Part shown: positions 37,006 through 54,611 of the stretch, in pieces
How positions within the stretch are numbered: position 1 is the stretch's first letter
Layout: every line of letters starts with the position of its first letter
Origin: Candidatus Poribacteria bacterium
Lineage (GTDB): Bacteria > Poribacteria > WGA-4E > WGA-3G
Length of the DNA: 64,000 nucleotides
Direction: 5' to 3'
Assembly (NCBI GenBank): GCA_028820635.1
Contig: JAPPIG010000108.1
Coordinates: forward strand, 113,733-177,732
Notes under the pieces: generated by a model
What the model was told of the DNA's origin: nothing
Database searches by the model: none
What the model saw: the letters and a program-made list of their open reading frames with translations, nothing else
Translations under genes and position numbers: made by a program

Positions 37006-39513
37006 TTAAAACGTGCGGGACCATTTAAAATTGGCTTGATATCCTCGGTCCCTCTCAAGAGCTCTTGCGAAGTTCAACCTGAAGATACCGAATTGGAAAC
37101 CGATGCCAAGGTTAGCCTTTGGATAAATATTCTTTATATCTTCCAAATTATCCCATGCTTGTCCTATATCTACAAAAGGCACAACGAAAATCTTACTTGT
37201 TAAACTATGAACATACTCCAAATTGAAGAGAAACCCATGGTCGCCCGCAAATTCGTAGAGCGAGTATCCGCGTAAAGTTCCGGTGCCACCCAGCACAAAT
37301 TGGCGTTGATAAGGCAACCAATACTGAGTAGCAGCTAACCCGACTTTTAAACGGGTATCAAGCCAGTTTTCTCCAATGGGATGGTAGTTGCGGAGGTGTA
37401 TCACAAAACGCGCGAAATCATAATCTGAACCGATTTCAGAAGCAGAAAACTCACCAAGAAATGTGTTATACCACTCGTTATTGTTTCCTCGGTTTCCCAA
37501 GTCGTATCTAACTTTGGTGTTTTCCCGAGTATCAAAATCGTATTTTATAGAGATACTATGCATTCTGCCATCGTATATTAGAGAATTCGCTCTTGCAAGT
37601 GTGCTTACATCTAAATGATAATTTGAGGTGCCGATTCTTAAGTCAGAATGGCCGTGATTGAAAATGGTTTCATGTTCTTCCAATAGAAGCGATAGTCCCA
37701 GCGTATGCTTCAATGTCGGATTCTGCCATTGCAGTGCCATCACGCCTCCTTGTCTGGTATAGTAGTCATTGAAGTCTGCACCAGTGAATGCTCTCAAGAA
37801 TTGTTCGCTGCCGCTCAATAAGAGGTCTCTGTCCCTGACAGATGTTAGTCTATGAATTTGGGCACTATATGTCAGATTTGATTTCTCACCGAATATGACA
37901 CCGCCACCAAGCCGATAATTGAGAGTTTCTGTTTGAGTAGCAAAACTCATACTACCGAATACAAAAGGCATCGGTCCTAAGTGGGAACGTATTGGGACTG
38001 AGTCACCGTTTACATTTCGTCGAATCGTTTCGCCGGATCTTTCAAAAAAGAGTGGGTCGTAATACCATCTTTTGCCAAGTTCAAATCCGCCACCGAGTCT
38101 TAGTCCATCAACAGGATTTAAACCGCTGGTATTCAAGAGGCGAAAGAAATTCTTGTCAGTGAGAGAAACTTGGTTGCCTTGGGTAAAAACGCCTGCGGGA
38201 TTGTATCTGTCTTTTTCAAATGCGTCTAACATGCCTTGCATAAGTGACGATTTTGATGGTGGTAGAACCTGCATCCAATTGCCGTCGTTACTGTATAGTT
38301 TTTCAACACCAACATTTGACCACCAAGAATGCTCACCTGTGCGTTGTTGTTTTCTGTCAAAGTTAATACCCATCAGAATTGGCTCAGTGGTATCGGGATA
38401 ATCCAGTATCTGCCAAGGAATTTCCATCTCCACAACCCATCCGTCATCAACAATTTTTGATGCGACTTTCCACTGATCTGCCCATTCGGGATTCTTTGGA
38501 CGCGCTGTAGCAAAATGCACATATTTTTTTCCAAGTGGATTTGCCATAAACAAGGTACGATGTTCGGGTTTGCGTGTGTGAAATGGGTCAATGCTGAAGC
38601 AGACTGAATCTTCGTTTACGAAACGAACATGGTCTTTGGTTTGAAGTGCTACGATTTTTTGGGGTTGGGAATCGTAAAGATGCCACGCAACGTAGATTGA
38701 TTTGTCGGTATAAACCAGTTTGACTGTGGTCTGATCTTTGACCGGTTTTTCGGTGCTCACATGCGTAAATTTGTCTGCTTCAGGTGCTATTTTCCAGCTG
38801 TTATCATCAAGTTTTCCGTCAATTTTTGGCGGTTTTTCGATTTTAACCGCAAGCATTTCTTTTTCAACGGTGCCTCTATCTGGGTTTGGTTCTACCTTTA
38901 CCTTCAATTTGTCACCGAGATCAATATCTGTAGTTCCAAAATTGCTCAAATTTCCAAGCAAATCGCTAATCCGTTCTGTAGCGATTTTGCCGACAATGTT
39001 AACAAAGGTAACTTCCTTACGCTTTTCAGGCTTATCGGTAACCGCAATGGCAAAGATTCCGTAAGCTACATCTTCATCATATAGCAGACTTACTTCAACC
39101 ATTTCGTTCGCTTCCTTGATTTTGACGAAAACTTCCCACTCCTCTTTTCTAAGCTTATCCTGATAGTATTCAACAAACTTCGACCCGTCAGTGGTTATAG
39201 AACTATCATAAGTGCGGACATAGATACCATCAAGCATCTGGACCATCTCTTTCACCTCTGGTGACAAACTCATGGATTTGGTGACCAGATTGATAAGTTT
39301 GTCTGTCAAGTTGACTTCAACCTTTGCTTCGGGACTTCTCGGGTGGTCAAAGAGGATACGTCCTTTCTTCTTTGTTTTTTCAGACTGTTCTTTTTCCGCT
39401 AATACCTGATGGATCGGTAAAATCCAGAATGCTAAACAGAACGTTGTGAAGAACAGTGTAAGGTGTCTTTGCAGTTTCATTGTGTTATTCTCCTTTTTTA
39501 TATAATGCTTCAA
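37006..39513 (-). CDS. Outer-membrane beta-barrel protein (835 aa). It has an N-terminal DUF4252-like domain fused to a CBM9-like region and a DUF5916-type barrel.
   Basis: Signal peptide present. Residues about 80-200 align with the adjacent stand-alone 180-aa protein (VEMIEGVFIRSY…VSLLFADNPDVLHGIFIVL…TFVNIFGKI versus VQMLDGIYVRTY…VSLLYDEDVAYGIFAIAV…TFVNIVGKI). A DGKLDDNSWKIAPEADKF block is CBM9-like. The C-terminal half has alternating-hydrophobic beta-strands ending in …FKWSRTF, an aromatic terminus typical of OM barrels. Confidence 0.7.
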   Translation of the reverse strand: MKHYIKKENNTMKLQRHLTLFFTTFCLAFWILPIHQVLAEKEQSEKTKKKGRILFDHPRSPEAKVEVNLTDKLINLVTKSMSLSPEVKEMVQMLDGIYVRTYDSSITTDGSKFVEYYQDKLRKEEWEVFVKIKEANEMVEVSLLYDEDVAYGIFAIAVTDKPEKRKEVTFVNIVGKIATERISDLLGNLSNFGTTDIDLGDKLKVKVEPNPDRGTVEKEMLAVKIEKPPKIDGKLDDNSWKIAPEADKFTHVSTEKPVKDQTTVKLVYTDKSIYVAWHLYDSQPQKIVALQTKDHVRFVNEDSVCFSIDPFHTRKPEHRTLFMANPLGKKYVHFATARPKNPEWADQWKVASKIVDDGWVVEMEIPWQILDYPDTTEPILMGINFDRKQQRTGEHSWWSNVGVEKLYSNDGNWMQVLPPSKSSLMQGMLDAFEKDRYNPAGVFTQGNQVSLTDKNFFRLLNTSGLNPVDGLRLGGGFELGKRWYYDPLFFERSGETIRRNVNGDSVPIRSHLGPMPFVFGSMSFATQTETLNYRLGGGVIFGEKSNLTYSAQIHRLTSVRDRDLLLSGSEQFLRAFTGADFNDYYTRQGGVMALQWQNPTLKHTLGLSLLLEEHETIFNHGHSDLRIGTSNYHLDVSTLARANSLIYDGRMHSISIKYDFDTRENTKVRYDLGNRGNNNEWYNTFLGEFSASEIGSDYDFARFVIHLRNYHPIGENWLDTRLKVGLAATQYWLPYQRQFVLGGTGTLRGYSLYEFAGDHGFLFNLEYVHSLTSKIFVVPFVDIGQAWDNLEDIKNIYPKANLGIGFQFGIFRLNFARALERDRGYQANFKWSRTF

Positions 39514-39562
39514 TTAACAGGAAACTTTGCTTGTGCGTGAAATGTGTTTGCATCTTGGTTTT

Positions 39563-40105
39563 TTATTTTTCCCTACGGAATTTTATGTCAAACTTAAAGT
39601 CTTCCCAAAACTCTGGTTTCGATTCCTTAAGTTTTCCAAAGAGGATTCCGAGTTTCTGAAAATCTATCTTCCCAAAAATGTTCACAAAAGTAGTGTTATT
39701 CTCGTCAATCAAGACGATAAAGATTCCATGTAATACATCGGGGTTATCGGCAAAGAGCAGGCTGACGTGAAGTTGGTCCTTAACCTTGATAAACTTCTCC
39801 CACTTTTCCGTTTTGAGAATGTTCTGGTAATGGCGTGTAATTTCAATTAAGTTCCCGGCTTCTTTACTATAACTGCGGATGAAAACACCCTCTATCATCT
39901 CCACGTACTCCGCATGTTCCGGTAAATTTATCGTAGAATTGAAAAAGCGGTTGAAAAATGTCTTATCTAAGTTGATTTCTAAATTAAGTACTGAAGGGTT
40001 CGGTAAGTTCATCTCTATTTTGCCACGAATTGCGTCGGTTTCTGCTATGCCATTGCTAAAAAAGCAGAAAGCGAGTAGAAGGGTTATCAGGCTAAATCGT
40101 CTCAT
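39563..40105 (-). CDS. DUF4252-like secreted protein
   Basis: 180 aa with a signal peptide. It overlaps the anti-sigma gene by 4 nt (ATGA) and is homologous to the N-terminal domain of 37006..39513. Confidence 0.6.
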   Translation of the reverse strand: MRRFSLITLLLAFCFFSNGIAETDAIRGKIEMNLPNPSVLNLEINLDKTFFNRFFNSTINLPEHAEYVEMIEGVFIRSYSKEAGNLIEITRHYQNILKTEKWEKFIKVKDQLHVSLLFADNPDVLHGIFIVLIDENNTTFVNIFGKIDFQKLGILFGKLKESKPEFWEDFKFDIKFRREK

Positions 40106-40779
40106 TGTGTACTTCCTCCTGGAATTGATGAATTAGGTTTTATAGAAAAATTTGTATGTTTGGTTTTAGGTGGAATTGTCTCTGAATCCGGTTGATCACC
40201 AGTTAGGCGGTTTAGTATACCTAAGCTTTTATCGATTGCTGAAGATATTTTTGATGTTGATTTGAAAACACTGCGTGATGCTTCGTCAATCTTAAGAGAT
40301 GTAAAACTATCGTTTACTGCAAGACCTGTTTTATGGACTGCGTACTCCATCTTACGCATTGCGTAGTTGAAGTCGCTTTTTGCTTGTTCTATTTCAACAT
40401 GCCTTTGATGTTGATGGATACCAAATAATACTATTCCGACAAGACAGGTAAGGGCACTTACACGAAGAATTAGTTGGCGCGAGTTTTCCCAAGCGAATAC
40501 ATTGAAAAAACGATCCATCCAATTATCGTTGTGAGGATGCGTCTGAATATAAGCCGTAACCTCACTTAATATGTCGGGTGGGGACGTTGGTTTTGGCAGA
40601 TCGTCCAACACCACATCAATTGTTTGTGCCAAATTGAATTCGTGCTGACATGTGTTACATGTAGCGAGGTGAGATGTGATAGCAGATTCAATGGCGGTAT
40701 CCAATTCCCCCGCAATGTATTCTTCAATTTGCGCTTGGCAGTCTGTGCAAGTTATTTCGTGTGATAGATTTTGAGGCAT
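40102..40779 (-). CDS. Anti-sigma factor, zinc-finger (zf-HC2-like) single-pass membrane protein
   Basis: Has CTDCQ … HLATCNTCQ zinc-binding motifs and one TM segment (LTCLVGIVLFGI). It lies immediately downstream of the ECF sigma gene. Confidence 0.7.
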   Translation of the reverse strand: MPQNLSHEITCTDCQAQIEEYIAGELDTAIESAITSHLATCNTCQHEFNLAQTIDVVLDDLPKPTSPPDILSEVTAYIQTHPHNDNWMDRFFNVFAWENSRQLILRVSALTCLVGIVLFGIHQHQRHVEIEQAKSDFNYAMRKMEYAVHKTGLAVNDSFTSLKIDEASRSVFKSTSKISSAIDKSLGILNRLTGDQPDSETIPPKTKHTNFSIKPNSSIPGGSTQ

Positions 40780-40782
40780 CGG

Positions 40783-41358
40783 TTATGTCTCCAGTAGGCG
40801 GTTCAATATTTCCCGCAATTTCTTACGAGCACGAAATACGGTTGATTTGATGGTGTTTTCAGATTGTTTTAAGACCTGTGCAATTTCTTTATAACTCATC
40901 TCTTCTAATTCCCGCATAATTACGATTGATCGCATGGATGGCGGTAATTCGTCAATCGCTTGATGCACTAACTGCTTATGTTCTTGCTTAATGGCAGTCT
41001 CCTCTGGGGTTGGATTTGACTGATATGAATGTGTATGCAGTAGCATTTCAAGCGTTTCACCATCTTCTTCGGATAAATGCACCCGAAATTTTCGGCGTTT
41101 TAGTTGATTAAAACAGAGATTCTGTACACATTTCAGCAACCATGAGCGAACGGTTTCCTGCTTTAATTTCCTGTGATGTTGCCATGCCTTGATAAAGGTT
41201 TCTTGTGTCATATCTTTTGCGTCTTCACTGTTTTTGAGTAGATAGAAGGCATGCCGATAAACCTGATCTTGATGTTTGCGGACCAGTTCAAGGAATTCAT
41301 CTTCTGTCATGTGGCAACTCCGCGCGCTCGGGTTAACGCTACTACAAACAAGTTGCAA
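40783..41358 (-). CDS. ECF-family RNA polymerase sigma-70 factor
   Basis: Region 2 (…YRHAFYLLKNSEDAKDMTQETFIKAW) and region 4 (MSYKEIAQVL…SENTIKSTVFRARKKL) are present. The true start is probably the MTEDEF internal Met. Confidence 0.85.
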   Translation of the reverse strand: MQLVCSSVNPSARSCHMTEDEFLELVRKHQDQVYRHAFYLLKNSEDAKDMTQETFIKAWQHHRKLKQETVRSWLLKCVQNLCFNQLKRRKFRVHLSEEDGETLEMLLHTHSYQSNPTPEETAIKQEHKQLVHQAIDELPPSMRSIVIMRELEEMSYKEIAQVLKQSENTIKSTVFRARKKLREILNRLLET

Positions 41359-41538: not shown

Positions 41539-43008
41539 TTATAGCACAGCATTTTGCGCGGGATTGAGCAGTAGCGATGGCAAAATACCGATGAGCAAAA
41601 CGCCAATTGCAGCAAGGGCTAATCCGATGACTAAGGTTGAGGGGTATGGATTGAATTCCAACTCTTCTTCAGGTTCACGCATATACATTGTTACGACAAC
41701 GCGTAGATAATAGAAAGCTGAAATCGCAGTATTGACAGCACCAACGATGACAAGTGAGACAAGCCAAGTGTTAACTACATCTGGTTGAACAGCGGCTTGA
41801 ACAGCAGATTTGAAGATATAAAATTTTCCGACAAACCCTGCAGTTGGCGGAAAACCCGCAAGGGATAGAAGCATTAGCGTCATAAATATGCCGAGCAGAG
41901 GCTTACGGAAACCGAGTCCTGCGTAATCGGAAATCGTTAAACTTTCTCCATCAGCGGTTCTCGCTAAGATAACCGCACCGAAAGCACCGATATTCATAAC
42001 GCAGTAAACAAGGAGATAGAGCATTGCGCTTGATGTACCATCATCGTTTGCTGCAGCTAAACCTATTAACACATAACCTGCATGTGCAATACTTGAATAG
42101 GCGAGCATCCGTTTGATGTTTGTTTGCGCTATAGCAATAACATTACCAACTGTCATCGTCAACATCGCCAACAACACGATTACACCTGTCCATTCAGACT
42201 GTATATCTGGCAACGCTTCCATAAAAATCCTAATAAATGCTGCAAATCCAGCTGCTTTTGGTCCCGCAGAGATGAAGGCAGCGATTGTGGTAGGTGCGCC
42301 TTCGTAAACATCTGGTGCCCATTGGTGGAACGGAACGATAGCAACCTTAAACCCAAACCCAACGATAAGTAGGAATGTCCCTGCTAAGAGAAGTGGGGAT
42401 TGACTCTCAGTGGTGAGTTTCTCTGCAATCCCTGGAATACTTGTTGTTCCAGCAGCACCGTAAATTAAAGCGATTCCATAGAGGAAAAAGGCACTTGCAA
42501 ACGCACCAAGCAATAGATATTTCATTCCTGCTTCACTTGAAGCAGGGCTTTCACGGAAATAGCCTGCTAACACATACAACGACAACGACATTAGTTCTAA
42601 GCCGAGGAAAATGATAATCAACTCATTGCCAGCAGCCATTAACATCATGCCGAGCGTTGCAAGCAGGATAAGCAGATAGTACGGTCCCTGTTTTTTATCG
42701 CCTTTCCCTAAATAACTAATTGAGATGAGGGCAACCAAAATTGTTGAAACGAGGAAGATAATGTTGAAAAAGAGGGAGTAACTATCTATCCTGAACATGT
42801 CGTTGAACTGGGTTTGATCTGTCCCGGCTTGCAGCAGATTAATAGATGCCCATAAGGCAATCACTGCACCAACAATTGTCATCCATCCCAATGTCTTTTT
42901 TGAAATAGAGTCAATCATGTCAAAGACAAGGACAATAAGCAACGTTGAAACAATGACAAGTTGCGGCATTAACAATGACCAATTAATCTCAGGTATCTCA
43001 ACTGGCAT
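41539..43008 (-). CDS. nuoN: NADH-quinone oxidoreductase subunit N
   Basis: 489-aa polytopic membrane protein of the NuoN/ND2 family. It is the last gene of the nuo cluster. Confidence 0.85.
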   Translation of the reverse strand: MPVEIPEINWSLLMPQLVIVSTLLIVLVFDMIDSISKKTLGWMTIVGAVIALWASINLLQAGTDQTQFNDMFRIDSYSLFFNIIFLVSTILVALISISYLGKGDKKQGPYYLLILLATLGMMLMAAGNELIIIFLGLELMSLSLYVLAGYFRESPASSEAGMKYLLLGAFASAFFLYGIALIYGAAGTTSIPGIAEKLTTESQSPLLLAGTFLLIVGFGFKVAIVPFHQWAPDVYEGAPTTIAAFISAGPKAAGFAAFIRIFMEALPDIQSEWTGVIVLLAMLTMTVGNVIAIAQTNIKRMLAYSSIAHAGYVLIGLAAANDDGTSSAMLYLLVYCVMNIGAFGAVILARTADGESLTISDYAGLGFRKPLLGIFMTLMLLSLAGFPPTAGFVGKFYIFKSAVQAAVQPDVVNTWLVSLVIVGAVNTAISAFYYLRVVVTMYMREPEEELEFNPYPSTLVIGLALAAIGVLLIGILPSLLLNPAQNAVL

Positions 43009-43077: not shown

Positions 43078-44562
43078 CTAACGTAGGAACACGAATGTAA
43101 CGACCACAAAAAGCGGGAATAAAATAGCAACGGACCATAACATGTATCCAAAGAAACTCGGCATGCGGATACCGCTCTGTTCGGCAATTGATTTAACCAT
43201 AAAATTCGGTGCATTTCCGATATATGTATTTGCACCCATGAAAACTGCCCCGACAGATATTGCAGTTAGCAATCTGACAAACTCAAGGTGATGGGGCTCA
43301 GTCAATTGTCCTGACAAAATTTGTGGAACAACCGCCTCAGTAAGCTCTAATTTTCCAAGTGCGGTGTTGAAAAATGTTAAATAGGTTGGCGCATTATCTA
43401 AGAAACTGGACAAGATCCCAGTTATCCAGAAGTAGTGAGAGGGTTGCTGAATTGCCCCGATTAACCCGCTCAGTGCGCCTTTTGTACCGACACCGAGAAT
43501 TGTCAATGCCGGAATAATCGTCATAAAGATGCCAGCAAATACTTTTGCGACTTCTTCGATTGGTTCCCATGAGAACTCGTTTGATTGGCGTAATTCACCG
43601 CTAAAGGGCGTAAACTTGAGGGATAATAAACCCATCACGACAATCAACACGTCGCGTGCGATATTCTGCCAATATACATGAACACCGAGTACGTTGATAT
43701 CTCCCCACTTGAAAGAGCCACTCATTAAGACTGCCGCAACGATACCAAAGAGGAAAACGAGATTAAAAAGACCTTCAACACGAATCGGTTCGTTGACTCC
43801 ATCATCTGGGACGACACCACCTTCTCGTTTGAACATGAATGTGTCTATTATGAAAAAGAGAACGATTAAAATGACACTAATAAATACCATGTGTGGAAAG
43901 AGTGCGGTTGTTGTCCAGAAGAAAGGCACGCCGTGTAGAAATCCAAGAAAAAGTGGTGGATCGCCAAGAGGGGTTAAGGAACCACCGATATTGCTTACTA
44001 AAAAGATGAAGAAGACAATTAAATGCACCTTACTCTTTCGGTACGCATTTGCTTTAATCAACGGACGGATAAGGAGCATTGATGCGCCTGTTGTTCCTAT
44101 CCATGAGGCAATTACAGTGCCGATTAGCAATAACAGCGTGTTAACCATCGGTGTGCCGCGCAATGTTCCTCTGACGAGTATCCCGCCTGCAACCGTGAAC
44201 AAACCCCATAACAGTATGATGAACGGAATGTAGTCTATTAAGTAGATGTATAAAATATCGTGAAAAGCGTCACCTCTGAAAACGACAAGATATGGGATTG
44301 CGAATAATAACGCCCATGCCAATGACATTTTTCCACCATGGTGGACAAGAAAATGGGAATCTAACAGGAGTGGGAAAAGTGCGATTGAGAGGAGAATTCC
44401 TACAAAGGGAATAATGCTCCAGATAGGTAGTATGGAACCATCTACGCGAAAGTGTCCACCCTCGCCATGTGTCTCATCAGCAGCGAAGGTTTCCATTGAA
44501 ACTACTAAAGTAAGCCCCACGATGATGCATAATATAAGAAAAGAGGCAAGTTTTGACTTCAC
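43078..44562 (-). CDS. Ion-transporter-superfamily permease (ArsB/NhaD/CitMHS-like), embedded between nuoM and nuoN
   Basis: 494 aa with about 12 TM segments. The SLTPLGDPPLFLGF block resembles the ArsB/NhaD family. Its stop codon abuts the nuoM start at 44562. Confidence 0.5.
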   Translation of the reverse strand: MKSKLASFLILCIIVGLTLVVSMETFAADETHGEGGHFRVDGSILPIWSIIPFVGILLSIALFPLLLDSHFLVHHGGKMSLAWALLFAIPYLVVFRGDAFHDILYIYLIDYIPFIILLWGLFTVAGGILVRGTLRGTPMVNTLLLLIGTVIASWIGTTGASMLLIRPLIKANAYRKSKVHLIVFFIFLVSNIGGSLTPLGDPPLFLGFLHGVPFFWTTTALFPHMVFISVILIVLFFIIDTFMFKREGGVVPDDGVNEPIRVEGLFNLVFLFGIVAAVLMSGSFKWGDINVLGVHVYWQNIARDVLIVVMGLLSLKFTPFSGELRQSNEFSWEPIEEVAKVFAGIFMTIIPALTILGVGTKGALSGLIGAIQQPSHYFWITGILSSFLDNAPTYLTFFNTALGKLELTEAVVPQILSGQLTEPHHLEFVRLLTAISVGAVFMGANTYIGNAPNFMVKSIAEQSGIRMPSFFGYMLWSVAILFPLFVVVTFVFLR

Positions 44563-46160
44563 TATTTCGTCTGTGCCTCCTCTTCAATCAGTTGTAGGGT
44601 TGCGGTTTCGACTTTCAGAATAACAGGGTCTTGAGTTTCACCATCAATAATTACTTGTCCAACCTCTGGCGTATTGTCAGATTCATTTACTTTTACTTTT
44701 TCAGTAACCACACCCACTGATGCTTTCATCGGTTTCAGGAATGTATTCGGATGTACACCAATCCATACAATGAAAAGCAGTATCGGCAGTAAGACAACTA
44801 TTTCACGCGGTTTCAGGTCAGGCAAAGATGCGTTTGTGTTGTCTGGTGTACCAAACATGACCCGCTGGAACATCCATAGCATATAAACTGCTGCCAAGAT
44901 TACGCCTGTTGTTGCGAAGACCACGTACCATTTGGAGAATGCCCCGCCAACAAAACTGCCAAGCAATATCATAAATTCACCTACGAATCCGTTGAGTCCC
45001 GGCAGTCCGATGGATGACAGTGTTACAATCAAAAAGATGGTAGCGAAGATAGGCATTTTCTTTGCCAGTCCACCGAAGTCAACGATCATTCGGCTGTGCC
45101 GCCGTTCATAAATCATGCCGACCAAAAGGAACAGTGCGCCAGTGCTTAATCCGTGATTGATCATTTGCAAAACGCTTCCCTGAATACCTAAATGACTTTT
45201 TGAAAAAAGACCTAATACTACGAAACCGAGGTGACTGACACTGGAATATGCGACAAGTTTTTTCAGGTCCGGTTGTACCATTGCTACTAATGCCCCGTAA
45301 ATTATACCGATAATTGCAAGTGGCACTATCCAAGGTGTAGCGTCAGCTGCAGCTTGTGGGAAAAGCGGTAGGCAGAAGCGGACTATCCCGTACGTCCCCA
45401 TTTTAAGCAGCACCCCTGCCAGGATCACACTTCCGACTGTAGGTGCTTCAACGTGTGCATCTGGTAGCCATGTATGGAATGGGAAAAGAGGCACTTTAAT
45501 CGCAAAAGCAATGAAAAATGCAAGGAATAATAGATAGGAATGATCAAATGTGCCTTCTGTTGCTAATAGTGTTACGAGATCAAAGCTGTTACCGTTTTGG
45601 AAGTATAGTGCTAAAATGCCGACTAACATGAGCGCACTGCCTGCCATTGTGTAAAGTACGAACTTGATAGTGGCATAGATTCTACGTTCACCACCCCATA
45701 TTCCGATAAGGAAATACATCGGGATTAACATTGCCTCCCAGAACACAAAGAACAAGAATAGGTCTAAGGCACAGAAAACACCCAGCATTCCAGTTTCCAG
45801 CGCGAGGAGCGACATCATAAAACCGCTCAATCCTTTCTCAACCGAATTCCAAGCGGCGAGAATACATATTGGCGTTAGGAAAGTTGTAAGTAGCACTAAC
45901 CACAACGAAATACCGTCAATGCCGATGTGGTAACTTATACCTAAACCGGCAATCCACGGCAGTTTCTGGTAGAGTTGTGAGTCAGTTTGGAAACCATCAA
46001 TTCCTGCCTCAAATCCGGTGTAAAGCCCTATTGAGACAACGAATGTCAACAAACTGATGACGAGCGCGATGCCTTTAATAGCAGATGCGCCCATATTTCT
46101 GAGCAATGCTATCGCTATCACACCAAGCAGTGGTAAAAAAATAACTATTGAAAGTAGCAA
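44562..46160 (-). CDS. nuoM: NADH-quinone oxidoreductase subunit M
   Basis: 532-aa NuoM/ND4 family antiporter-like subunit (…WLPDAHVEAPT…). Confidence 0.9.
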   Translation of the reverse strand: MLLSIVIFLPLLGVIAIALLRNMGASAIKGIALVISLLTFVVSIGLYTGFEAGIDGFQTDSQLYQKLPWIAGLGISYHIGIDGISLWLVLLTTFLTPICILAAWNSVEKGLSGFMMSLLALETGMLGVFCALDLFLFFVFWEAMLIPMYFLIGIWGGERRIYATIKFVLYTMAGSALMLVGILALYFQNGNSFDLVTLLATEGTFDHSYLLFLAFFIAFAIKVPLFPFHTWLPDAHVEAPTVGSVILAGVLLKMGTYGIVRFCLPLFPQAAADATPWIVPLAIIGIIYGALVAMVQPDLKKLVAYSSVSHLGFVVLGLFSKSHLGIQGSVLQMINHGLSTGALFLLVGMIYERRHSRMIVDFGGLAKKMPIFATIFLIVTLSSIGLPGLNGFVGEFMILLGSFVGGAFSKWYVVFATTGVILAAVYMLWMFQRVMFGTPDNTNASLPDLKPREIVVLLPILLFIVWIGVHPNTFLKPMKASVGVVTEKVKVNESDNTPEVGQVIIDGETQDPVILKVETATLQLIEEEAQTK

Positions 46161-46191
46161 AAAAATCTCCTTTAGAATAACTTAACTTTCA

Positions 46192-46617
46192 TCAACCGGA
46201 ACCAATAATCATCAATAATACCGAGTCCATCCCAGATGACTCGGATGATTCTCTGCGGCGTGCCAATTCGCGACGACGCCTTGAATAAGTGCCACGAGGC
46301 ATTTTGCTCTGCCACCAAAACTTTAGTTTACGATTGAATTTCGATATTTCCTCAGACGACCTACTGCAGTTGTCCAGAACCCATGCCCCTAAACTAATAT
46401 CGTTGTCAATCCGGACAGATGCCTCCTGAAATGAATCCGCTGAAATGCCAAGGAAGGATAATATTCCAGTATCTTGTTCAGAATCAGCACCGTATTTATA
46501 ACTTCCAATTTCTCCTGCATGGGCAGCTCGTGCCTTATCTGTCAGTCTTGCAACACCGCAGATGCCAGCAACTTCTTTGTTTAGCAAATCCCGTGGTCGA
46601 AAAGTATTCTGTTTCAT
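46192..46617 (-). CDS. Small soluble protein, paralog 1 of a tandem pair between nuoL and nuoM. Possibly DUF5069-like; unverified.
   Basis: 141 aa. About 75% identical to the 46754..47200 product; shared text includes FRPRDLLN-E(V/I)AGICGVARLTDKARA-H-GEIGSYKYGADSEQDT-ILSFLGISA. Confidence 0.55.
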   Translation of the reverse strand: MKQNTFRPRDLLNKEVAGICGVARLTDKARAAHAGEIGSYKYGADSEQDTGILSFLGISADSFQEASVRIDNDISLGAWVLDNCSRSSEEISKFNRKLKFWWQSKMPRGTYSRRRRELARRRESSESSGMDSVLLMIIGSG

Positions 46618-46753
46618 CTTTTCCTCTGTTCGTATTTTGTAAAAAGAAATTTTATGGAAACTATTCTACATCACGAAACAATCAATTAGCAAAAATCCCT
46701 TCTAATAGGGTATACTCACTTTGTAGTAACAAAACTGCAAATCTCTATCTTTT

Positions 46754-47200
46754 CTATCTTTTGAAGATTTTCGATAGTAACCACCACTGAGGTGAAACCC
46801 AAAAAGGAATAGATGGTTCTTCAGCATTTAATTCGCGGCGGCGTTTTGAAAATCCATTTTGAGGCATTTTACGCTGCCACTGATGTTTCAACTTCCGATT
46901 GAACTTAGATACTTCCTCAGATGATTTATCACAGTTGTTCAGAATCCATGCACCCAGTTTGAGATCGTTGTTGAGTCTGACTGCTGCATCTTTGAAAACT
47001 TCCGCTGAAATACCGAGGAACGATAGAATCTCTGTATCTTGTTCAGAATCAGCACCGTATTTATAACTTCCAATTTCTCCTACATGGTCAGCCCGCGCTT
47101 TATCTGTCAGTCTTGCAACACCGCAGATGCCAGCAATTTCTTGATTTAGCAAATCCCGTGGTCGAAAATTACTCTGTTTCATTTCTTCCTCCGTTAGCAT
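46754..47200 (-). CDS. Small soluble protein, paralog 2 of the tandem pair
   Basis: 148 aa. See paralog 1. Confidence 0.55.
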   Translation of the reverse strand: MLTEEEMKQSNFRPRDLLNQEIAGICGVARLTDKARADHVGEIGSYKYGADSEQDTEILSFLGISAEVFKDAAVRLNNDLKLGAWILNNCDKSSEEVSKFNRKLKHQWQRKMPQNGFSKRRRELNAEEPSIPFWVSPQWWLLSKIFKR

Positions 47201-47246
47201 TTCCTAAAAAAGATCGTGGGAACTGGTCTACATTATAAGACAATTT

Positions 47247-49154
47247 TTAAGCAAAAAACAGATAGTACGCGAGGAATAACACGATTCCTAGGACCATTGA
47301 CACAATATATACTTGGACAAGACCTGTTTGTAATCTTCGCAAAGTTCCGCCAATCACTCGGATAAGTGCAGCCACGCCATTAACAATTCCGTCAATAATC
47401 CCTGTATCAAACAATTTCCATAACAGAAAATGGGAAGCGTTTTTGATTGGCTGGACGATAAAAGTATTGTATAGCTCATCAATATAGAATTTGTTGGCAA
47501 CGAGTTTCTGTAATGCGTTGGTAGGTTCTGCAGAAGGCACACGATTCTTATAGCGTGTCCACGCAAATGTGATGCCTGCTATCCCAATGACTGATGAAAT
47601 TACCATGAACGGTATCGGACTACCCAATGCTTCGCCATGCCCGCCTTTAAAACCTGCTACTTTTTCAGTAAAGTGATGAAACCAACTATTGTGTCCGCCC
47701 ACCCCTAACAGCAATCCGATTAGGGCAGAGGGAATAGCAAGAATAGCCAACGGAATCCACATCACCGCAGGTGATTCATGCAGATGTGAAGCAACCTCAG
47801 GTTCAACGCGAGATTTCCCATAAAAAGTCACAAAGATTAGACGGAACATGTAGAACGCTGTCAGGAATGCAGTAATCAATCCAATGATGTAGATCGCTTT
47901 TCCGCTTCCCCATGTAACTCCCCACGCGCTATGTAAAATTTCATCCTTACTCCAGAAACCACTTAAGAACGGGGCACCTGCAATTGCCAACGCGCCAACC
48001 AAAAATGTAGCATGGGTTATCGGCAATTTGTTTCGCAATCCTCCCATTTTTCGTATATCTAATTCATTCGCCATTGCGTGCATCACGCTGCCAGCAGTCA
48101 AGAACATCAGCCCTTTAAAGAATGCATGTGTTACCAAATGGAAAATACCGGAAGCATACGCACCGACACCGACACCGACAAACATATACCCCAATTGGCT
48201 TACGGTGGAATAGGCGAGAATTCGTTTAATGTCATTCTGTTTGAGGGCTATTATTGCGGCGAACAAAGCGGTTAGGACACCGATCCAAGCGACAACTACT
48301 CCTGTTTCTGCGATGTTATACAGCACAGCGGAACGTGCAATCATATAGACACCCGCGGTAACCATTGTGGCGGCGTGTATTAATGCACTAACAGGGGTTG
48401 GACCTTCCATTGCATCTGGCAGCCAAACATAAAGAGGGAGCTGTGCGGATTTACCAACTGCTCCAACAAAGAGGAGCAAAGTCGCAAGCATAATTCCGTT
48501 TACACCAAAAACTATCTCATCACTTTTTGCTTCAGCTCCAGAAAATATCGTTGAGAAGTCAAGGGAGTTGAACACAGCAAACAACGTGAACATCCCTAAC
48601 AGAAAACCGAAATCACCGATTCTGTTGACAATAAACGCCTTTTTACCTGCATCCGTAGCGGATTGTTTCTCATACCAGAATCCTATTAGCAGATAGGAGC
48701 AGAGTCCAACACCTTCCCAACCAACAAACATCATCAGATAGTTGTTGCCGAGAACGAGGATAAGCATCGCGAAGACAAATAAATTTAGGTAGGCAAAATA
48801 GCGGGTATAGCCTGCATCTCCGTGCATATATCCGATGGAATATACGTGGATGAGAAATCCAACACCTGTAATTACCAACAACATCACAGTTGTCAAGGCA
48901 TCAACGTGGAAGCCGATGTTGAAAGTGAACGATTCACCTGCAATCCATGAATAAAGCACCTCATTGAACGGTTTCTCACTGCCCTGTACATTTACAAAAG
49001 CGATAATTGAACAGATTAAGGATACGAGTACGGCAAGTGCACCGATTGTCCCACTGAGTTTCTCGTTACCTTTTAACCATTTGCCAAACAATCCGTTAAT
49101 CAGAAACCCAACAAGTGGCGAAATTAATAAGATAATAATTAGACTATTTGACAT
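47247..49154 (-). CDS. nuoL: NADH-quinone oxidoreductase subunit L
   Basis: 635-aa NuoL/ND5 family protein (…WLPDAMEGPTPVSALIHAATMVTAG…). Confidence 0.9.
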   Translation of the reverse strand: MSNSLIIILLISPLVGFLINGLFGKWLKGNEKLSGTIGALAVLVSLICSIIAFVNVQGSEKPFNEVLYSWIAGESFTFNIGFHVDALTTVMLLVITGVGFLIHVYSIGYMHGDAGYTRYFAYLNLFVFAMLILVLGNNYLMMFVGWEGVGLCSYLLIGFWYEKQSATDAGKKAFIVNRIGDFGFLLGMFTLFAVFNSLDFSTIFSGAEAKSDEIVFGVNGIMLATLLLFVGAVGKSAQLPLYVWLPDAMEGPTPVSALIHAATMVTAGVYMIARSAVLYNIAETGVVVAWIGVLTALFAAIIALKQNDIKRILAYSTVSQLGYMFVGVGVGAYASGIFHLVTHAFFKGLMFLTAGSVMHAMANELDIRKMGGLRNKLPITHATFLVGALAIAGAPFLSGFWSKDEILHSAWGVTWGSGKAIYIIGLITAFLTAFYMFRLIFVTFYGKSRVEPEVASHLHESPAVMWIPLAILAIPSALIGLLLGVGGHNSWFHHFTEKVAGFKGGHGEALGSPIPFMVISSVIGIAGITFAWTRYKNRVPSAEPTNALQKLVANKFYIDELYNTFIVQPIKNASHFLLWKLFDTGIIDGIVNGVAALIRVIGGTLRRLQTGLVQVYIVSMVLGIVLFLAYYLFFA

Positions 49155-49157
49155 GTT

Positions 49158-49457
49158 TTATCCTTTCAGCGAATTAACTTCATCCACATTAATTGTTTCG
49201 CGATGCTTGAAAACACTTACAATAATTGCTAATCCGATTGCGACTTCCGCAGCAGCAACAGCCATCACAAAAAAGACGAACAACTGCCCCTCCACTTGAC
49301 CGAGGCTACGACTGATCGCTACAAAGGCGAGATTTGCTGCGTTTAGCATCAATTCAATACACATAAAGATGATAATCGCGTTTCTGCGGATGAGTACACC
49401 GATAACGCCTATTGTAAATAAGAGCGCGCTCAAGATGAGATAATACTCTAATGACAT
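49158..49457 (-). CDS. nuoK: NADH-quinone oxidoreductase subunit K
   Basis: 99-aa NuoK/ND4L family protein with 3 TM segments. Confidence 0.9.
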
Positions 49458-49458
49458 A

Positions 49459-49490
49459 TTAGTTGTCAGTTGTCAGTTGTCAGTTGTCAG
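49459..49490. repeat. Perfect tandem heptanucleotide repeat (AGTTGTC x4) immediately 5' of the nuoK start codon
   Basis: The sequence att-agttgtc-agttgtc-agttgtc-agttgtc-agagg abuts the nuoK ATG at 49457. Confidence 0.8.
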
Positions 49491-49618
49491 AGGATGGATT
49501 GTTAACCGTCCTCCTTCTGTCGTAACACACGAGTTCTGTAGGTGTTAGACAAGTTGAAAACTGATACCAATAACCGATGACTCCTTTGTTGTTGTAGGCA
49601 CTATCGCCTAAATCTGTT

Positions 49619-50167
49619 TTAGTTTTCAGTTTGGTTTTCGCGTTTTACCAAGACAATTACGCCAATCAATGCTGCCAACAAAATAAGCGAGGTAACCTCA
49701 AACGGTAAAAGGTATTTGCTGAACAAAAGTTCACCAATATCATAAGTTTCAATCGGATTATTAGTGAGAGCAGCTGCCTTTTCCTGTGCTGCTTCCGATC
49801 CAACCTCAGTATTATTGAGGGCATTCACCGCAATATAGATGCCTTGAGCAGCCAAGAGGATACCCAAAATTATCGCAACACCTTTCAGTTTCCCTGTGAG
49901 AGCACCTTTCGCAGAGAGTGTGCCAAGGTTCAGCAGCATAATTACAAAGAGGAACAATACCATGATTGCTCCAGCATACACAATAACCTGAACAGCAGCG
50001 ACGAAGTGTGCGCCCAAAATCACAAACAACCCTGCTTGTGCGAAAAACGTTACAATAAGCGAAAGCGCACTATATATCGGGTGCCGAAACGAGATAACAG
50101 CGATTGCACCAATTAGTGACACAGCACCAAAGATAAAAAATAGAATCATTTCTGGATTCATTTGCAC
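49619..50167 (-). CDS. nuoJ: NADH-quinone oxidoreductase subunit J
   Basis: 182-aa NuoJ/ND6 family protein. Confidence 0.85.
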   Translation of the reverse strand: MQMNPEMILFFIFGAVSLIGAIAVISFRHPIYSALSLIVTFFAQAGLFVILGAHFVAAVQVIVYAGAIMVLFLFVIMLLNLGTLSAKGALTGKLKGVAIILGILLAAQGIYIAVNALNNTEVGSEAAQEKAAALTNNPIETYDIGELLFSKYLLPFEVTSLILLAALIGVIVLVKRENQTEN

Positions 50168-50172
50168 GCCTC

Positions 50173-51411
50173 CTATTCTACTGCGTCCAAGCCGCGCAGT
50201 GGTGCTGCGGCGGGAGTGTTTTGCGCTGCAGATTTACTGTTATTGTCCATAGCAAGCATCCCTGCTACGATTGCTACGACAATAAACGCTGCAACTACAT
50301 TGCCAACACCTATCCAAAGACGATTACCTTTCGTTATTATATATAATGTGCCGGTAACAACGATTGACGATAAGGCAACAGGCAACAAGAATTTCCAACC
50401 GAAATTCATGAGTTGGTCATAGCGGAAACGCGGAAGTGTCCAGCGTACCCAGATGAAAACAAACAAGAAAATTCCTGTTTTAACAAAGAAGATAGCAAAC
50501 GAGATAAGTCCAGCAAGTACGGATCCCTCTCCACCTATGTTTTCCAATCCGAAAAAGTGCCAACCGCCTAAGAACAGTGTTACAACCACTGCCGAACCGA
50601 CAATCATGCTCATATATTCTGCCATAAAGAATATAGCGAATTTCATACTGCTGTATTCGGTGTGGTAACCTGCGACAAGTTCCTGCTCTGCTTCAGCAAG
50701 GTCAAATGGCAATCGGTTTGTTTCTGCGAACACTGCTGTTGTAAACGCAAGAAATGCTGGAAAGTGTATCAGGAAATTCCATTCCCACGGGTTTGCACCC
50801 TGTCCCTCTGCAATTTCCCGAAGTTTGAGCGATTCGGAGAGCATCAAAACACCGATAATTGCCAATCCGAGCGTCAATTCGTAACTTATCATCTGCGCGG
50901 ATGAACGCAAACCACCCAAAAGTGAGTATTTGTTGTTTGATGCCCACGCACCTATAACAACACCATACACACCGAGAGACGTTATTGCTAAGATATATAA
51001 AATGCCTATATTGAGGTCAGCGATCTGAAGCGGAATTTCATATCCTGCTATCGTCATAGAACTTCCGAATGGTACGACAGCTACTATAATCATTGCTGGG
51101 ACCAGAAGCATTGCTGGGGCAAGCACGTAAAGTGGCTTATCTACGTGATTTGGGATGAGGTCTTCCTTAAAGAGGAACTTAATCCCATCTGCAATAGGTT
51201 GAAGTAGTCCTTGTGGTCCGACGCGATTCGGTCCGAGTCGATCCTGCATCCATCCGCTCACACGGCGTTCAGACCAAATCATCGCCATCACACCAATAAT
51301 CAGCAGATGTGCAACGATGAGAATTTTGACGATTGAACTGATGATAAAAACGTGAAGAGGTAAACTTTCCATATTTCTCCTTCTTGATGACGCGCAGATT
51401 GAAATTAGCAA
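50173..51411 (-). CDS. nuoH: NADH-quinone oxidoreductase subunit H (with N- and C-terminal extensions)
   Basis: NuoH/ND1 blocks (MQDRLGPNRVGP, LAEAEQELVAGYHTEYS) are present. At 412 aa it is about 70 aa longer than typical. The true start may be the internal MESLP. Confidence 0.85.
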   Translation of the reverse strand: MLISICASSRRRNMESLPLHVFIISSIVKILIVAHLLIIGVMAMIWSERRVSGWMQDRLGPNRVGPQGLLQPIADGIKFLFKEDLIPNHVDKPLYVLAPAMLLVPAMIIVAVVPFGSSMTIAGYEIPLQIADLNIGILYILAITSLGVYGVVIGAWASNNKYSLLGGLRSSAQMISYELTLGLAIIGVLMLSESLKLREIAEGQGANPWEWNFLIHFPAFLAFTTAVFAETNRLPFDLAEAEQELVAGYHTEYSSMKFAIFFMAEYMSMIVGSAVVVTLFLGGWHFFGLENIGGEGSVLAGLISFAIFFVKTGIFLFVFIWVRWTLPRFRYDQLMNFGWKFLLPVALSSIVVTGTLYIITKGNRLWIGVGNVVAAFIVVAIVAGMLAMDNNSKSAAQNTPAAAPLRGLDAVE

Positions 51412-51412
51412 G

Positions 51413-53068
51413 TTAGTCTAACTTAATGCCTGCATCTCCTATGTTTTGATGTGTTGCGTCACCGTAACCCGCTACATTCTCTGCAATTGCTATGGCAATT
51501 TCACCCGCGAAATGGTAATCAATTTCTCCACCGAGTCGCTTCGCAAGCTGCTGCGTAATCTGCCAATCTACTTGTGCTTCACCTGGAGGGTCAATTGTCT
51601 TTCGAATCCGTTGCACCCATCCGGTAGAATTGGTAAACGTGCCATCTTTTTCTGCGAAAGTTGTTCCCGGTAGTACCACATCGGCTAATTCCGTAACCGC
51701 TGATGGTAAAACATCTTGCACGATGAGAAAATCAACCTTTTCTAATGCGTTTCTTTCGGTATCTTCAAGCGCGCGTTCTGGCACACCACTAACGATATAA
51801 ACGACTTTCGCACTTGCGACCTTTTCCCAAAGTGCATCGCCTTCTAAAACGACATTTCCGTTTGCAGAGCCGAGTATTGTTCGCGCACCTGCGGTGTTTG
51901 GATTCTTGTCCGCTTCTATGGTAAATTGTGGGAATTTGTGCTCTTCACCGGGTAGTTGCCCAAAGAGCCCCAATTGTGTTGTCTTTAGCACATCGTGTGC
52001 AAACTGCTGTAAAACATAGTTGTCTTCATTCGTGCCTTGTGCAGAACCGATAACAACAATATCTGCAGCATCAACTTCGGATAAATTTTCGGTAATTAAC
52101 GTCAACGCATCTGCCCACTGCGTTGTTACAAGTTCGCCATCAACCTTCTTAAGGGGTAGTTGGAGACGGTCATCGCTGTTGACATAGTGGTAACCGAGTC
52201 TGCCATCATCACACATCCAGTGTTGGTTAATATCTTCATGGAAGCGAGGTTTGATACGGTACACACCGTCTGCCTTATACTCAACCGTGACATTACATCC
52301 GACGCTACATCCTGAACAGATACTATTCGCCTTTTCCATAAACCACGGACGAGATTTGAACAAAAAATCTTTGCTAATCAACGCACCGACAGGACAAATA
52401 TCAACGACATTTCCAGCGAGTTTATTATCAAGAAGTTGTATGGGAGTTCCTTCATGGCTTCGGGGAATGTCAATCTCATCGTGGGAACCGCGATTTATCA
52501 ACCCAAGTTCACCACTGCCTGAAACCTCATCACAGAATCGGATACACCGCGTGCAAACGATACAACGTGTGGAATAGAGCAAAATATCCGGCCCCAGGTC
52601 TTTTTTCGGAGGCACGTTTTTGACTTCTATATAGCGGCTTTTATCGTGCCCATGCCGGTAGCTGAAGTCTTGCAGGTCGCATTCACCTGCTTGGTCACAG
52701 ACGGGGCAATCAAGAGGATGATGTACGAGCAAGAATTCCAAAATATCTTCTCTTGCCTTTATGACACGGGAACTGTCTGTTCGGACGATAGCGTCATATT
52801 TTTCTTCTAACTTTCTTTCTGGTGGTGCGGATCGGACTGTCAGTGTACAACCCGTAGCTAATTGTCGGGCTGGACCGATTGTACCTGGGGGAGCACCTGG
52901 TATGGGACCGTAAGGTTCAACGAGGCACATCCGGCAATTCGCTGGACGACTCAACCCTGCGTGGTAGCAGTAGTGAGGCACCTCAATGCCGTGTTCCCGT
53001 GCAGCCTCAACTATATTTGTTCCGTCTTCAACCTCTATTTCAAGGTCATTCAGTTTAATAAACGCCAT
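51413..53068 (-). CDS. nuoG: NADH-quinone oxidoreductase subunit G (short 551-aa form)
   Basis: Has the N-terminal 2Fe-2S and 4Fe-4S cysteine clusters (CYHAGLSRPANCRMCLVE, …CPVCDQAGEC…, CIVCTRCIRFC). It lacks the long C-terminal domain of the 900-aa forms. Confidence 0.85.
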   Translation of the reverse strand: MAFIKLNDLEIEVEDGTNIVEAAREHGIEVPHYCYHAGLSRPANCRMCLVEPYGPIPGAPPGTIGPARQLATGCTLTVRSAPPERKLEEKYDAIVRTDSSRVIKAREDILEFLLVHHPLDCPVCDQAGECDLQDFSYRHGHDKSRYIEVKNVPPKKDLGPDILLYSTRCIVCTRCIRFCDEVSGSGELGLINRGSHDEIDIPRSHEGTPIQLLDNKLAGNVVDICPVGALISKDFLFKSRPWFMEKANSICSGCSVGCNVTVEYKADGVYRIKPRFHEDINQHWMCDDGRLGYHYVNSDDRLQLPLKKVDGELVTTQWADALTLITENLSEVDAADIVVIGSAQGTNEDNYVLQQFAHDVLKTTQLGLFGQLPGEEHKFPQFTIEADKNPNTAGARTILGSANGNVVLEGDALWEKVASAKVVYIVSGVPERALEDTERNALEKVDFLIVQDVLPSAVTELADVVLPGTTFAEKDGTFTNSTGWVQRIRKTIDPPGEAQVDWQITQQLAKRLGGEIDYHFAGEIAIAIAENVAGYGDATHQNIGDAGIKLD

Positions 53069-53135
53069 AAATATTACTCCAATGACTTGGCATAGCCCTC
53101 AATATTCTGTCAGTTTCCAACTGGGATAATCAGTT

Positions 53136-54611
53136 CTACAGGTCAGCAAACTCCTTTGGAATAAACCGCTGTTGATACGCGTAATTTTCCTCTGGCGGCA
53201 CTGTCGCTTCAGCAACAGGTAGCGTAACCAATTTACCTTCTCGTATTGCGGCTTCAAATTCAGGTCTGAACTTGCGCATATAACTGACTGCCGGCCACGA
53301 AACAGCAATACCAAAGACGCAGATAGTATTCCATGTCATTGTATCCACATTCGCAATGTTGTTCGCAACGTTTTCCAGCAGATCAAGGTCTTCGTAGATT
53401 TCCTCTGTTTCACCAGTATCACCCCATCTGCCGCTTTCGGTGACACCGAACTTGGGTCGTGTGATAGTGGTTTGTCTGCCTTCTCCATCGGCAATCCGTT
53501 GGACAATATCACGGACCCACGGTGTGCCCCATCGACACGGTGTGCACTGCCCACACGATTCATGCGCGTAGAATTTCATGATATTGAGTAAGCAGTCAAC
53601 GATATTCCGGGTCTCATTCATTACAATGATGCCACCCGAACCTAACATTGATTTTGCAAGTGTGAGCGATGTAAAATCAAGTCGTGTATCTAACTCGTAA
53701 TGCGTCAAAATCGGTGCGGAACTTCCACCAGGGATCACCGCTTTGACCTCTTCACCACGCAAACCGCCTGCTACCTCAATAAGCTCTGTGCTTGTCAAAC
53801 CGAGTTCCAATTCATATACACCCGGTTCGTTGACATCGCCGCTGATACAGTAGAGTTTTGTGCCTGTATTTGGATCCGCTTTTGGTGGGTCAAATCGCGT
53901 ATCACCGTACGTCGGTCCCATCTGTGTGTACCATTCTACACCATTCCCTACGATAAAGGGTAGGTTGCACAAGGTCTCCACATTCTGCACGACGGTGGGT
54001 TTCATAAACACACCTTGAACAGCAGGGAAAGGCGGTTTGTTGCGAGGTTGCCCTCGTTTCCCCTCAAGGGATTCAATCAATCCTGTCTCTTCACCACAAA
54101 TATATGCACCAGCACCCGGATGTGAATAGATGTTAATATTTAGCCCCGTGTCTCGAACATTTTCACCAAGGTAACCCTGTTCGTAAGCCTCCTTAATGGC
54201 GGTATCTAACATCTTTTTTCCAAGTGTGAATTCACCGCGAATGTAAACATAAGTGGTCTCAATTCCCATTGCGTAGCAACAGATTAAGATACCTTCTATC
54301 AACAGATGTGGGTTTTTCTCTAAGACGTAGCGGTTGCTGAAGGTGCCGGGCTCGCTTTCGTCAGCGTTGCAACAAAGATAGCGCGGCTCAATATCCCTTG
54401 GGACAAAACTCCATTTTTCCCCAGTAGAAAAGCCGGCACCGCCTCTGCCTTTCAACCCCGCATCCCACACCATTTGCGCGATTTCTTCAGGTTGATATTC
54501 GGCAATCGCCTTTTCAAAACGGGTGTAACCCTCATATTGTCTAAAGACATCAAAGGTGTTTATATTCGGTACATCCAGATGCTCGTAGAGAATCCGTCTT
54601 TCTTGAACCAT
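53136..54611 (-). CDS. nuoF: NADH-quinone oxidoreductase subunit F
   Basis: 51-kDa subunit blocks (GRGGAGFSTGEKW, CGQCTPCR). Length is 491 aa. Confidence 0.9.
   Translation of the reverse strand: MVQERRILYEHLDVPNINTFDVFRQYEGYTRFEKAIAEYQPEEIAQMVWDAGLKGRGGAGFSTGEKWSFVPRDIEPRYLCCNADESEPGTFSNRYVLEKNPHLLIEGILICCYAMGIETTYVYIRGEFTLGKKMLDTAIKEAYEQGYLGENVRDTGLNINIYSHPGAGAYICGEETGLIESLEGKRGQPRNKPPFPAVQGVFMKPTVVQNVETLCNLPFIVGNGVEWYTQMGPTYGDTRFDPPKADPNTGTKLYCISGDVNEPGVYELELGLTSTELIEVAGGLRGEEVKAVIPGGSSAPILTHYELDTRLDFTSLTLAKSMLGSGGIIVMNETRNIVDCLLNIMKFYAHESCGQCTPCRWGTPWVRDIVQRIADGEGRQTTITRPKFGVTESGRWGDTGETEEIYEDLDLLENVANNIANVDTMTWNTICVFGIAVSWPAVSYMRKFRPEFEAAIREGKLVTLPVAEATVPPEENYAYQQRFIPKEFADL

Follow-up and report, generated by a model that had tools for sequence, protein, structure and literature searches.

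What might two small paralogous genes contribute when they lie inside the complex I operon of an uncultivated bacterium? The question is raised by a stretch of 64,000 nucleotides from Candidatus Poribacteria (assembly GCA_028820635.1, contig JAPPIG010000108.1, positions 113,733 to 177,732), called here the window and numbered from its first letter. A nuo operon runs along the minus strand of the window, with nuoA-D (58216-61265), nuoE, F, G, H, J, and K (49158-55224), nuoL, nuoM, and nuoN in this order. Two open reading frames (ORFs) lie at the nuoL-nuoM junction on the same strand, 46754-47200 (148 amino acids) and 46192-46617 (141 amino acids), and are referred to as copy A and copy B. An earlier note, made from the letters of the window, described them as paralogues of about 75% identity on the operon strand that have no counterpart in canonical complex I operons. 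This description holds; BLASTP aligns the two products without gaps over 118 residues (89/118 identities, 75%; E = 2e-70). Both belong to a C-terminally remodeled branch of the family DUF5069 whose place in the nuo operon is fixed throughout the phylum. The reading favored here, at a rough probability of 0.45, is that A and B may be a phylum-specific, membrane-tethered accessory component of the module formed by the distal part of complex I and a neighboring transporter.

Family membership and fold

Both copies match the Pfam family DUF5069 (PF16798; gathering cut-off, 27 bits), copy B at 60.5 bits (E = 2e-16) and copy A at 57.8 bits (E = 2e-15), as the earlier note had guessed. It is the sole Pfam family matched by the two proteins, and neither copy has a match in NCBIfam, PADLOC, or PHROGs. 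DUF5069 is a small family, accounting for only 157 clusters (50% identity) in a collection of 1.84 billion representatives, and fusions of two or three domains are frequent in it; DUF5069, DUF3386, PF16798, and PF11866 are not mentioned in the literature searched. The sole solved relative is 3OMD, an uncharacterized protein of Leptospirillum rubarum (E = 2e-7), whose helical fold the window proteins share. A fold comparison against solved structures returned 3OMD alone, so it yields no functional analogue. In the AlphaFold2 (AF2) model, the predicted local distance difference test (pLDDT) score is ~75-93 over residues 11-100 and poor beyond residue 105. Alignment of 16 diverse members, including both window copies, identifies P8, R9, G18, R24, D27, K28, A31, and D49 as invariant, while Y40 and W79 are nearly invariant across diverse members. 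The family-invariant polar set, namely the N-terminal PR, the R..DK..A of helix 1, and D49, is kept by both copies.

The earlier note had stressed conserved cysteines and acidic blocks. The cysteines C20 and C84 are conserved only in the nuo-linked branch (61/69 and 60/69 sequences) and not in the wider family; the emphasis on acidic blocks is not borne out at the family level. A metal site composed of C20, H33, and C84 was considered and rejected, as the cysteines do not co-vary (just one of the two is present in 17/69 sequences) and other members of the family lack them.

Replacement of the C-terminal helix by a basic stretch and tail

Canonical members of the family end in a conserved helix, APxRTDIxTWxDLLDLDDE, which is absent from the nuo-linked branch. 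The profile match of the window proteins ends at position 120-123 of 133, leaving the last ~10-13 positions missing, and the ~25 residues before the lost profile end align weakly in nuo-linked proteins. The sequence past ~residue 112 consists of a KRRR stretch and a tail in place of the canonical helix. A KRRR-type stretch is found in 68 of the 69 nuo-linked sequences, followed by about ten polar residues and then a tail of 12-20 residues. Aromatic residues make up 30% of the tails versus 9% of the core across these 69 sequences (25% versus 8% in copy A). The best 12-mer on the Wimley-White interfacial scale (median -5.6 kcal/mol) is C-terminal in 78% of the sequences, and that of copy A (-6.4 kcal/mol) starts at residue 125. 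Hydropathy is too low for a transmembrane segment in 68 of the 69; a true transmembrane anchor in the window copies was rejected, as their maximum 19-residue hydropathy is only 1.18 and 0.84.

A run of basic residues with an aromatic tail behind it typically marks proteins that bind the cytoplasmic face of an anionic membrane. Judged by sequence, the basic stretch and the aromatic or hydrophobic tail should tether the nuo-linked proteins to this face, and the view of the earlier note that they are soluble is too simple for proteins with such tails.

In locus L066 (4175-5053) and in protein P0002, a single ORF unites the two tandem DUF5069 genes, with a 23-residue transmembrane-like segment (FMMTGHLFLIGLMLWVGWMLWKF) between KRRR and KRKK as the linker; the fused variant of L066 is borderline as a transmembrane protein. 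The 3OMD entry holds two chains, which together with the frequency of two- and three-domain fusions suggests that DUF5069 domains associate with one another. As the fusions point to such association, an A-B heterodimer is likely in genomes with two copies.

Conservation of the arrangement across the phylum

The homologues of the two genes and the contigs identical to the window are those of Candidatus Poribacteria. A scan of one genome per species, followed by tblastn with the window Nuo proteins, gave 60 nuo-type DUF5069 loci; all 80 of the 80 matches kept in the genome scan are from Poribacteria, and the scan carries no information on other phyla. The order nuoL, DUF5069, nuoM on one strand is present in 58/58 informative species loci, the remaining two of the 60 being cut by contig ends. 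Wherever the contig extends far enough, nuoM is followed by a gene for a CitMHS_2 transporter and then by nuoN. Two DUF5069 copies are present in nine of the 60 loci and a single copy in the rest. Identity to the window falls no lower than ~80% for NuoL, ~75-80% for NuoM, and ~81% for the transporter, but reaches 57% for DUF5069, an accessory gene that is changing faster than the core subunits. Because all 58 loci share the arrangement while Nuo identity drops to ~75-80%, the nuo linkage of this DUF5069 branch is ancient and phylum-wide. The gene is thus encoded with the nuo genes and inherited with them in 58/58 genomes, as an accessory complex I subunit would be, the exceptions being one pseudogene (L089) and three copies with an in-frame TAG. 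This supports, in general terms, the suggestion of the earlier note that the proteins are a lineage-specific accessory or assembly factor.

Canonical members were examined in 83 loci totaling 595 kb, three of them from Nitrospirota genomes and 80 from metagenome contigs. None of the 83 is linked to nuo and none contains a CitMHS_2 gene; one has an Mrp-type cluster 3 kb off on the opposite strand. The co-localization with nuo that the earlier note wished to see surveyed is therefore found throughout Poribacteria and not in canonical members. As it is universal within the phylum and absent from the 83 canonical loci, the nuo link is a property of the remodeled Poribacteria branch alone. In 66/83 canonical loci, a gene of the family DUF3386 (PF11866), which is uncharacterized and without a solved relative, lies immediately upstream on the same strand (median gap, 43 nt; e.g. 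L092, 6278-7480), and ClpS lies further upstream (~1.4 kb) in 31. The DUF3386 partner is absent at the Poribacteria nuo loci, where the upstream neighbor is nuoL or an inserted methylase gene. The absence of both the C-terminal helix and this partner gene makes the window proteins atypical DUF5069 members by sequence and fold.

Other DUF5069 genes are present in Poribacteria outside the nuo operon. A 428-residue protein of three DUF5069 repeats is encoded at a separate, variable locus (L074, 9554-10840; L069-L088). A link between this paralogue and carbonic anhydrase was considered and rejected, as an alpha-carbonic anhydrase gene lies near it in just 7/20 loci, within a variable region. Locus L071 (9956-10411) has an extra single-domain paralogue with a Trp-rich tail near a cation-efflux gene, again away from nuo.

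History of the A/B pair

A tree built on residues 51-118 divides the nuo-linked proteins into three groups, A, B, and C. Clade A tails are basic and Trp-rich, e.g. PPFPWWISPGWWMFWKIFKR; clade B proteins have a Ser/Glu-rich linker and then a short hydrophobic end such as DSVLLMIIGSG; and clade C is large and single-copy, with tails such as ENRRRSWLQRDKWWWHNFFRT. The upstream copy in the window is of type A and the downstream copy of type B, and close relatives retain A only, B only, or both. The pair is an old duplication with differential loss. Between A and B, synonymous divergence (dS) over codons 51-118 is saturated, with a nonsynonymous divergence (dN) of 0.22. Neither a recent tandem duplication nor the dosage selection entertained in the earlier note is supported, as A and B form separate old clades with different tails and their synonymous sites over these codons are saturated.

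Over codons 1-50, 139 of 150 nucleotides are identical in A and B (93%; dS 0.16), and the 5' third is the more similar part in every A-B comparison. The N-terminus of the window copy B is A-like (MKQ..PRD), whereas orthologous B copies have MEQ..PRN, and its 5' end resembles A just as closely as it does the orthologous copy of the nearest genome. Because these codons are near-identical and the N-terminus is unlike that of orthologous B copies, the first ~150 nt probably underwent A-to-B gene conversion in the lineage of the window. Both copies are under purifying selection; dN/dS is ~0.2 in A-B, A-A, and B-B comparisons, and 0.16 for the copy A tail (versus L012).

Proposed role and alternative explanations

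In the favored reading, A and B, two types of a Poribacteria-specific, C-terminally remodeled DUF5069 branch with the 3OMD fold, would be transcribed with nuoL, nuoM, CitMHS_2, and nuoN. Each product would form an all-helical cytoplasmic domain of ~100 residues, anchored to the inner membrane face through its polybasic stretch and aromatic or hydrophobic tail. The two would pair as a heterodimer in the window lineage, with homodimers where one type is retained, and the dimers would attach to NuoL/NuoM in the distal membrane arm, perhaps also to the NhaD-like transporter, where they would serve in stabilization, assembly, or regulation; catalysis is unlikely. The functional argument rests on the phylum-fixed position combined with the branch-specific membrane tail.

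Several observations weigh against this proposal. The family as such does not point to complex I, as the 83 canonical loci illustrate; no cofactor or ligand motif was found in nuo-linked DUF5069 proteins; and the tails are highly variable in sequence and of low confidence in the model. The operon also tolerates unrelated insertions, and position alone is weak evidence of function because Uma2, methylase, and YhgA-type genes have entered it as well. In ~12 relatives (L011 (7588-9979), L013, L015, L026, L035, L036, L042, L050, L061, L065, L014, and L020), an Eco57I-like N6 DNA methylase gene on the operon strand separates nuoL from DUF5069, in some together with a YhgA-like transposase gene (PF04754), and in two relatives inserted DNA separates DUF5069 from nuoM. 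The gene may moreover be dispensable, since the DUF5069 copy of genome L089 is a pseudogene beside intact nuoM, CitMHS_2, and nuoN, and since three genomes have an in-frame TGG-to-TAG change, at codon 101 in L019 and L021 and at codon 133 in L011. The TAG-bearing genes (each at 10001-10432) have an intact frame downstream of the TAG, and the codon 101 TAG occurs in two different sub-clades. Such codons could reflect an assembly error, a fresh nonsense mutation, or read-through that gives tail-less and tailed forms.

One alternative, judged unlikely, is that DUF5069 is a partner or regulator of the CitMHS_2 transporter rather than of complex I; the two non-nuo genes would then make up a single functional module, interleaved with nuoM by chance. 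The two genes are found together in Poribacteria loci wherever the contig extends far enough, tethering at the membrane surface would be apt for a cytoplasmic protein that regulates a transporter, and foreign DNA has entered mostly upstream of DUF5069, leaving DUF5069, nuoM, CitMHS_2, and nuoN contiguous. However, DUF5069 and CitMHS_2 are never adjacent, as nuoM always intervenes, and the transporter gene is translationally coupled to nuoM and not to DUF5069. The transporter is intact in L089, where DUF5069 is dead, and the canonical DUF5069 loci are devoid of it.

It is likewise improbable that DUF5069 is a passenger with no functional relation to its neighbors, a cytoplasmic protein of separate function whose gene settled early in a permissive gap of the operon and makes use of its transcription. 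The nuo operon of Poribacteria does host unrelated Uma2, restriction-modification methylase, and YhgA transposase genes; canonical relatives sit in another context, with DUF3386 and ClpS neighbors; and the same genomes carry non-nuo DUF5069 genes, in the form of the three-domain protein and, in L071, the further single-domain paralogue. A passenger is harder to reconcile with the same junction in 58/58 informative genomes, unlike the variable insertions, and with the fact that only the nuo-linked branch exchanged the canonical C-terminus for a membrane-binding tail, which fits recruitment to a membrane complex.

A recent insertion of mobile, defense, or toxin-antitoxin type, or a very recent dosage duplication, is largely refuted: two small tandem genes in an operon that attracts defense-type insertions, with G+C falling to 0.36 around the inter-copy spacer, could give that impression, but the position is phylum-fixed, the copies have no PADLOC or PHROG match while the Uma2 genes of the same operon, by contrast, match PDC-S03 and differ in presence between relatives, the pair is not flanked by repeats or an integrase, and the synonymous saturation and separate clades described above point to an old pair.

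The membrane-tethered accessory component favored here admits of a bolder form, in which the DUF5069 dimer would serve as an adaptor on the cytoplasmic side, linking NuoL/NuoM physically to the NhaD-like CitMHS_2 transporter. Poribacteria would then have a hybrid complex I whose pumping module includes a secondary ion transporter as an integral, regulated part, and the TAG that recurs at Trp codon 101 might add a further layer by toggling the protein between tethered and soluble states; this version is a long shot.

Gene models and neighboring genes

The features of the region are collected in Table 1. The length of 148 amino acids given to copy A in the earlier note is probably too great; translation most likely starts at the seventh codon of the ORF, because GGAGGA lies 7 nt upstream of this ATG and identical contigs are called with a product of 142 amino acids. 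The window copy A is identical to one such product, protein P0001. Shine-Dalgarno sequences precede copy A, copy B, and nuoM, and the intergenic gaps are 64 nt (nuoL to A), 136 nt (A to B), and 31 nt (B to nuoM). A scan of the nuoL-nuoM gaps found no terminator-like site, and one weak 5-bp match lies inside copy B. A and B are most likely transcribed together with nuoL, nuoM, CitMHS_2, and nuoN, for which the ribosome-binding sites of the individual genes and the short gaps free of terminator-like sites give indirect support. A sigma-70-like match, TTGCTA-18-TAGAAT, at 46692-46663 in the spacer is a consensus match only, and promoter-like sites in the region are in total not above the shuffled expectation; the site could possibly be an internal promoter for copy B, nuoM, the transporter gene, and nuoN. 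Rfam has no match in 46000-47400.

Table 1. Coordinates of the DUF5069 pair and its operon neighbors in the window
Feature	Position	Strand	Remarks
DUF5069 paralogue type A (copy A)	46754..47182	-	142 aa; stop 46754-46756; PF16798 57.8 bits; clade A
Alternative copy A start	ATG 47200	-	Upstream ATG, yields 148-aa ORF
DUF5069 paralogue type B (copy B)	46192..46617	-	141 aa; PF16798 60.5 bits; GAGGA before ATG; clade B
Copy A C-terminus	46757..46846	-	Residues 113-142: KRRR, short polar linker, Trp-rich tail IPFWVSPQWWLLSKIFKR
Copy B C-terminus	46195..46284	-	Residues 112-141: RRRR..RRR, Ser/Glu-rich linker, hydrophobic end DSVLLMIIGSG
Copy A codons 1-50	47033..47182	-	High DNA identity with copy B 46468-46617
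Copy B codons 1-50	46468..46617	-	Probable recipient of A-to-B gene conversion
Inter-copy spacer	46618..46753	-	136 nt; conserved in several relatives; promoter-like match
nuoL	47247..49154	-	Upstream neighbor; Proton_antipo_N and Proton_antipo_M domains
nuoM	44562..46160	-	Downstream neighbor, 31 nt past copy B stop; Proton_antipo_M; AGGAG before TTG start
CitMHS_2 transporter gene	43078..44562	-	PF16980, E = 1e-175; between nuoM and nuoN
nuoN	41539..43008	-	Operon end; Proton_antipo_M domain

The CitMHS_2 transporter has 494 amino acids and a GTG start that overlaps the nuoM stop. Annotation sources call it a sodium:proton antiporter or NhaD/arsenite-permease-like. Its identity to the window ranges from 81 to 100% across the Poribacteria loci, the top 120 matches listed in a homologue search are all from Poribacteria, and it is without a solved relative.

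Elsewhere in the operon, two genes for Uma2-type putative endonucleases (55377-56177 and 56974-57864, minus strand), both with PADLOC PDC-S03 candidate-defense matches, flank an unknown gene for a product of 219 amino acids (56200-56859, minus strand). The block (55377-57864) interrupts the nuoD-nuoE junction, which spans 0.5-1 kb in most relatives, and is a variable insertion. No nuoI is present between nuoH and nuoJ, which follow each other directly (49458-51411). As no ORF with two 4Fe-4S motifs was found in the 64-kb window, nor within ~10 kb of DUF5069 in the 60 Poribacteria loci (L010-L068), nuoI must be encoded elsewhere in Poribacteria. Directly downstream of nuoN (37006-41358, minus strand) lie genes for an extracytoplasmic function (ECF) sigma factor, a zf-HC2 anti-sigma factor, and DUF4252 and DUF4252-CBM9-Omp85 proteins; this cluster is also 3' of nuoN in the close relatives L001, L002, and L006.

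Significance and comparison with known systems

Bacterial complex I is usually treated as a fixed core of 14 subunits, and it was through structures from cultivated species that the few clade-specific subunits became known. In the present case, an uncultivated phylum of sponge symbionts harbors two extra kinds of genes in its nuoL-N module, DUF5069 and an NhaD-like transporter, and a nuo-linked DUF5069 branch with a putative membrane tether seems not to have been described so far. If the products are part of the complex, they would constitute a natural experiment on extending or regulating the distal antiporter-like subunits, would bear on the long debate over Na+/H+ exchange by complex I, and would provide the first functional context for DUF5069, with the DUF3386-DUF5069 gene pair as a second lead. 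If the genes are passengers only, the finding reduces to an annotation note; if the transporter and complex I are physically coupled, its interest would rise sharply.

Within its own family, the Poribacteria branch differs from canonical DUF5069 proteins, which have a C-terminal helix, often a DUF3386 partner, and never a nuo link, whereas the branch has KRRR and a tail and is embedded in nuo. The window proteins are without homology to any of the systems with which they may be compared, namely MSMEG_2064, Nqo16, the nhaD and pcd products of Rhodothermus marinus, and CupA/CupS.

CupA and CupS of the cyanobacterial NDH-1MS complex (ndhF3-ndhD3-cupA-cupS) are soluble proteins on the cytoplasmic face of distal subunits like NuoL and NuoM, to which they add a function; the zinc site of CupA serves CO2 hydration. 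The analogy to DUF5069 is architectural only, with no similarity of sequence or fold. Homology to CupA/ChpY with its zinc ligands was not found, as the copies have no Pfam match outside DUF5069 and no family-wide Cys or His ligands.

The nqo operons of R. marinus, a second precedent, reportedly carry a gene for an NhaD-type Na+/H+ antiporter together with pcd (Melo et al. 2005, BBA 1709:95). These operons likewise embed non-canonical genes, among them one for an antiporter-like transporter of the ion transporter (IT) superfamily, between the genes for antiporter-like subunits; they differ in belonging to a different phylum and in having no reported DUF5069. Coupling of Na+/H+ antiport has been proposed for the complex I of R. 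marinus (PMC5662883).

The window proteins resemble MSMEG_2064/Rv3143 of mycobacteria and Nqo15/Nqo16 of Thermus in being small, non-core, and clade-restricted and in their tie to complex I, which for the DUF5069 pair is one of operon position. The Rv3143 gene, too, adjoins the nuo operon. Lineage-specific complex I subunits are known in bacteria, such as MSMEG_2064 in mycobacteria and Nqo16 in Thermus (PMC10068793). By this analogy, the nearest known functional kind for the DUF5069 pair would be a clade-specific supernumerary subunit of bacterial complex I.
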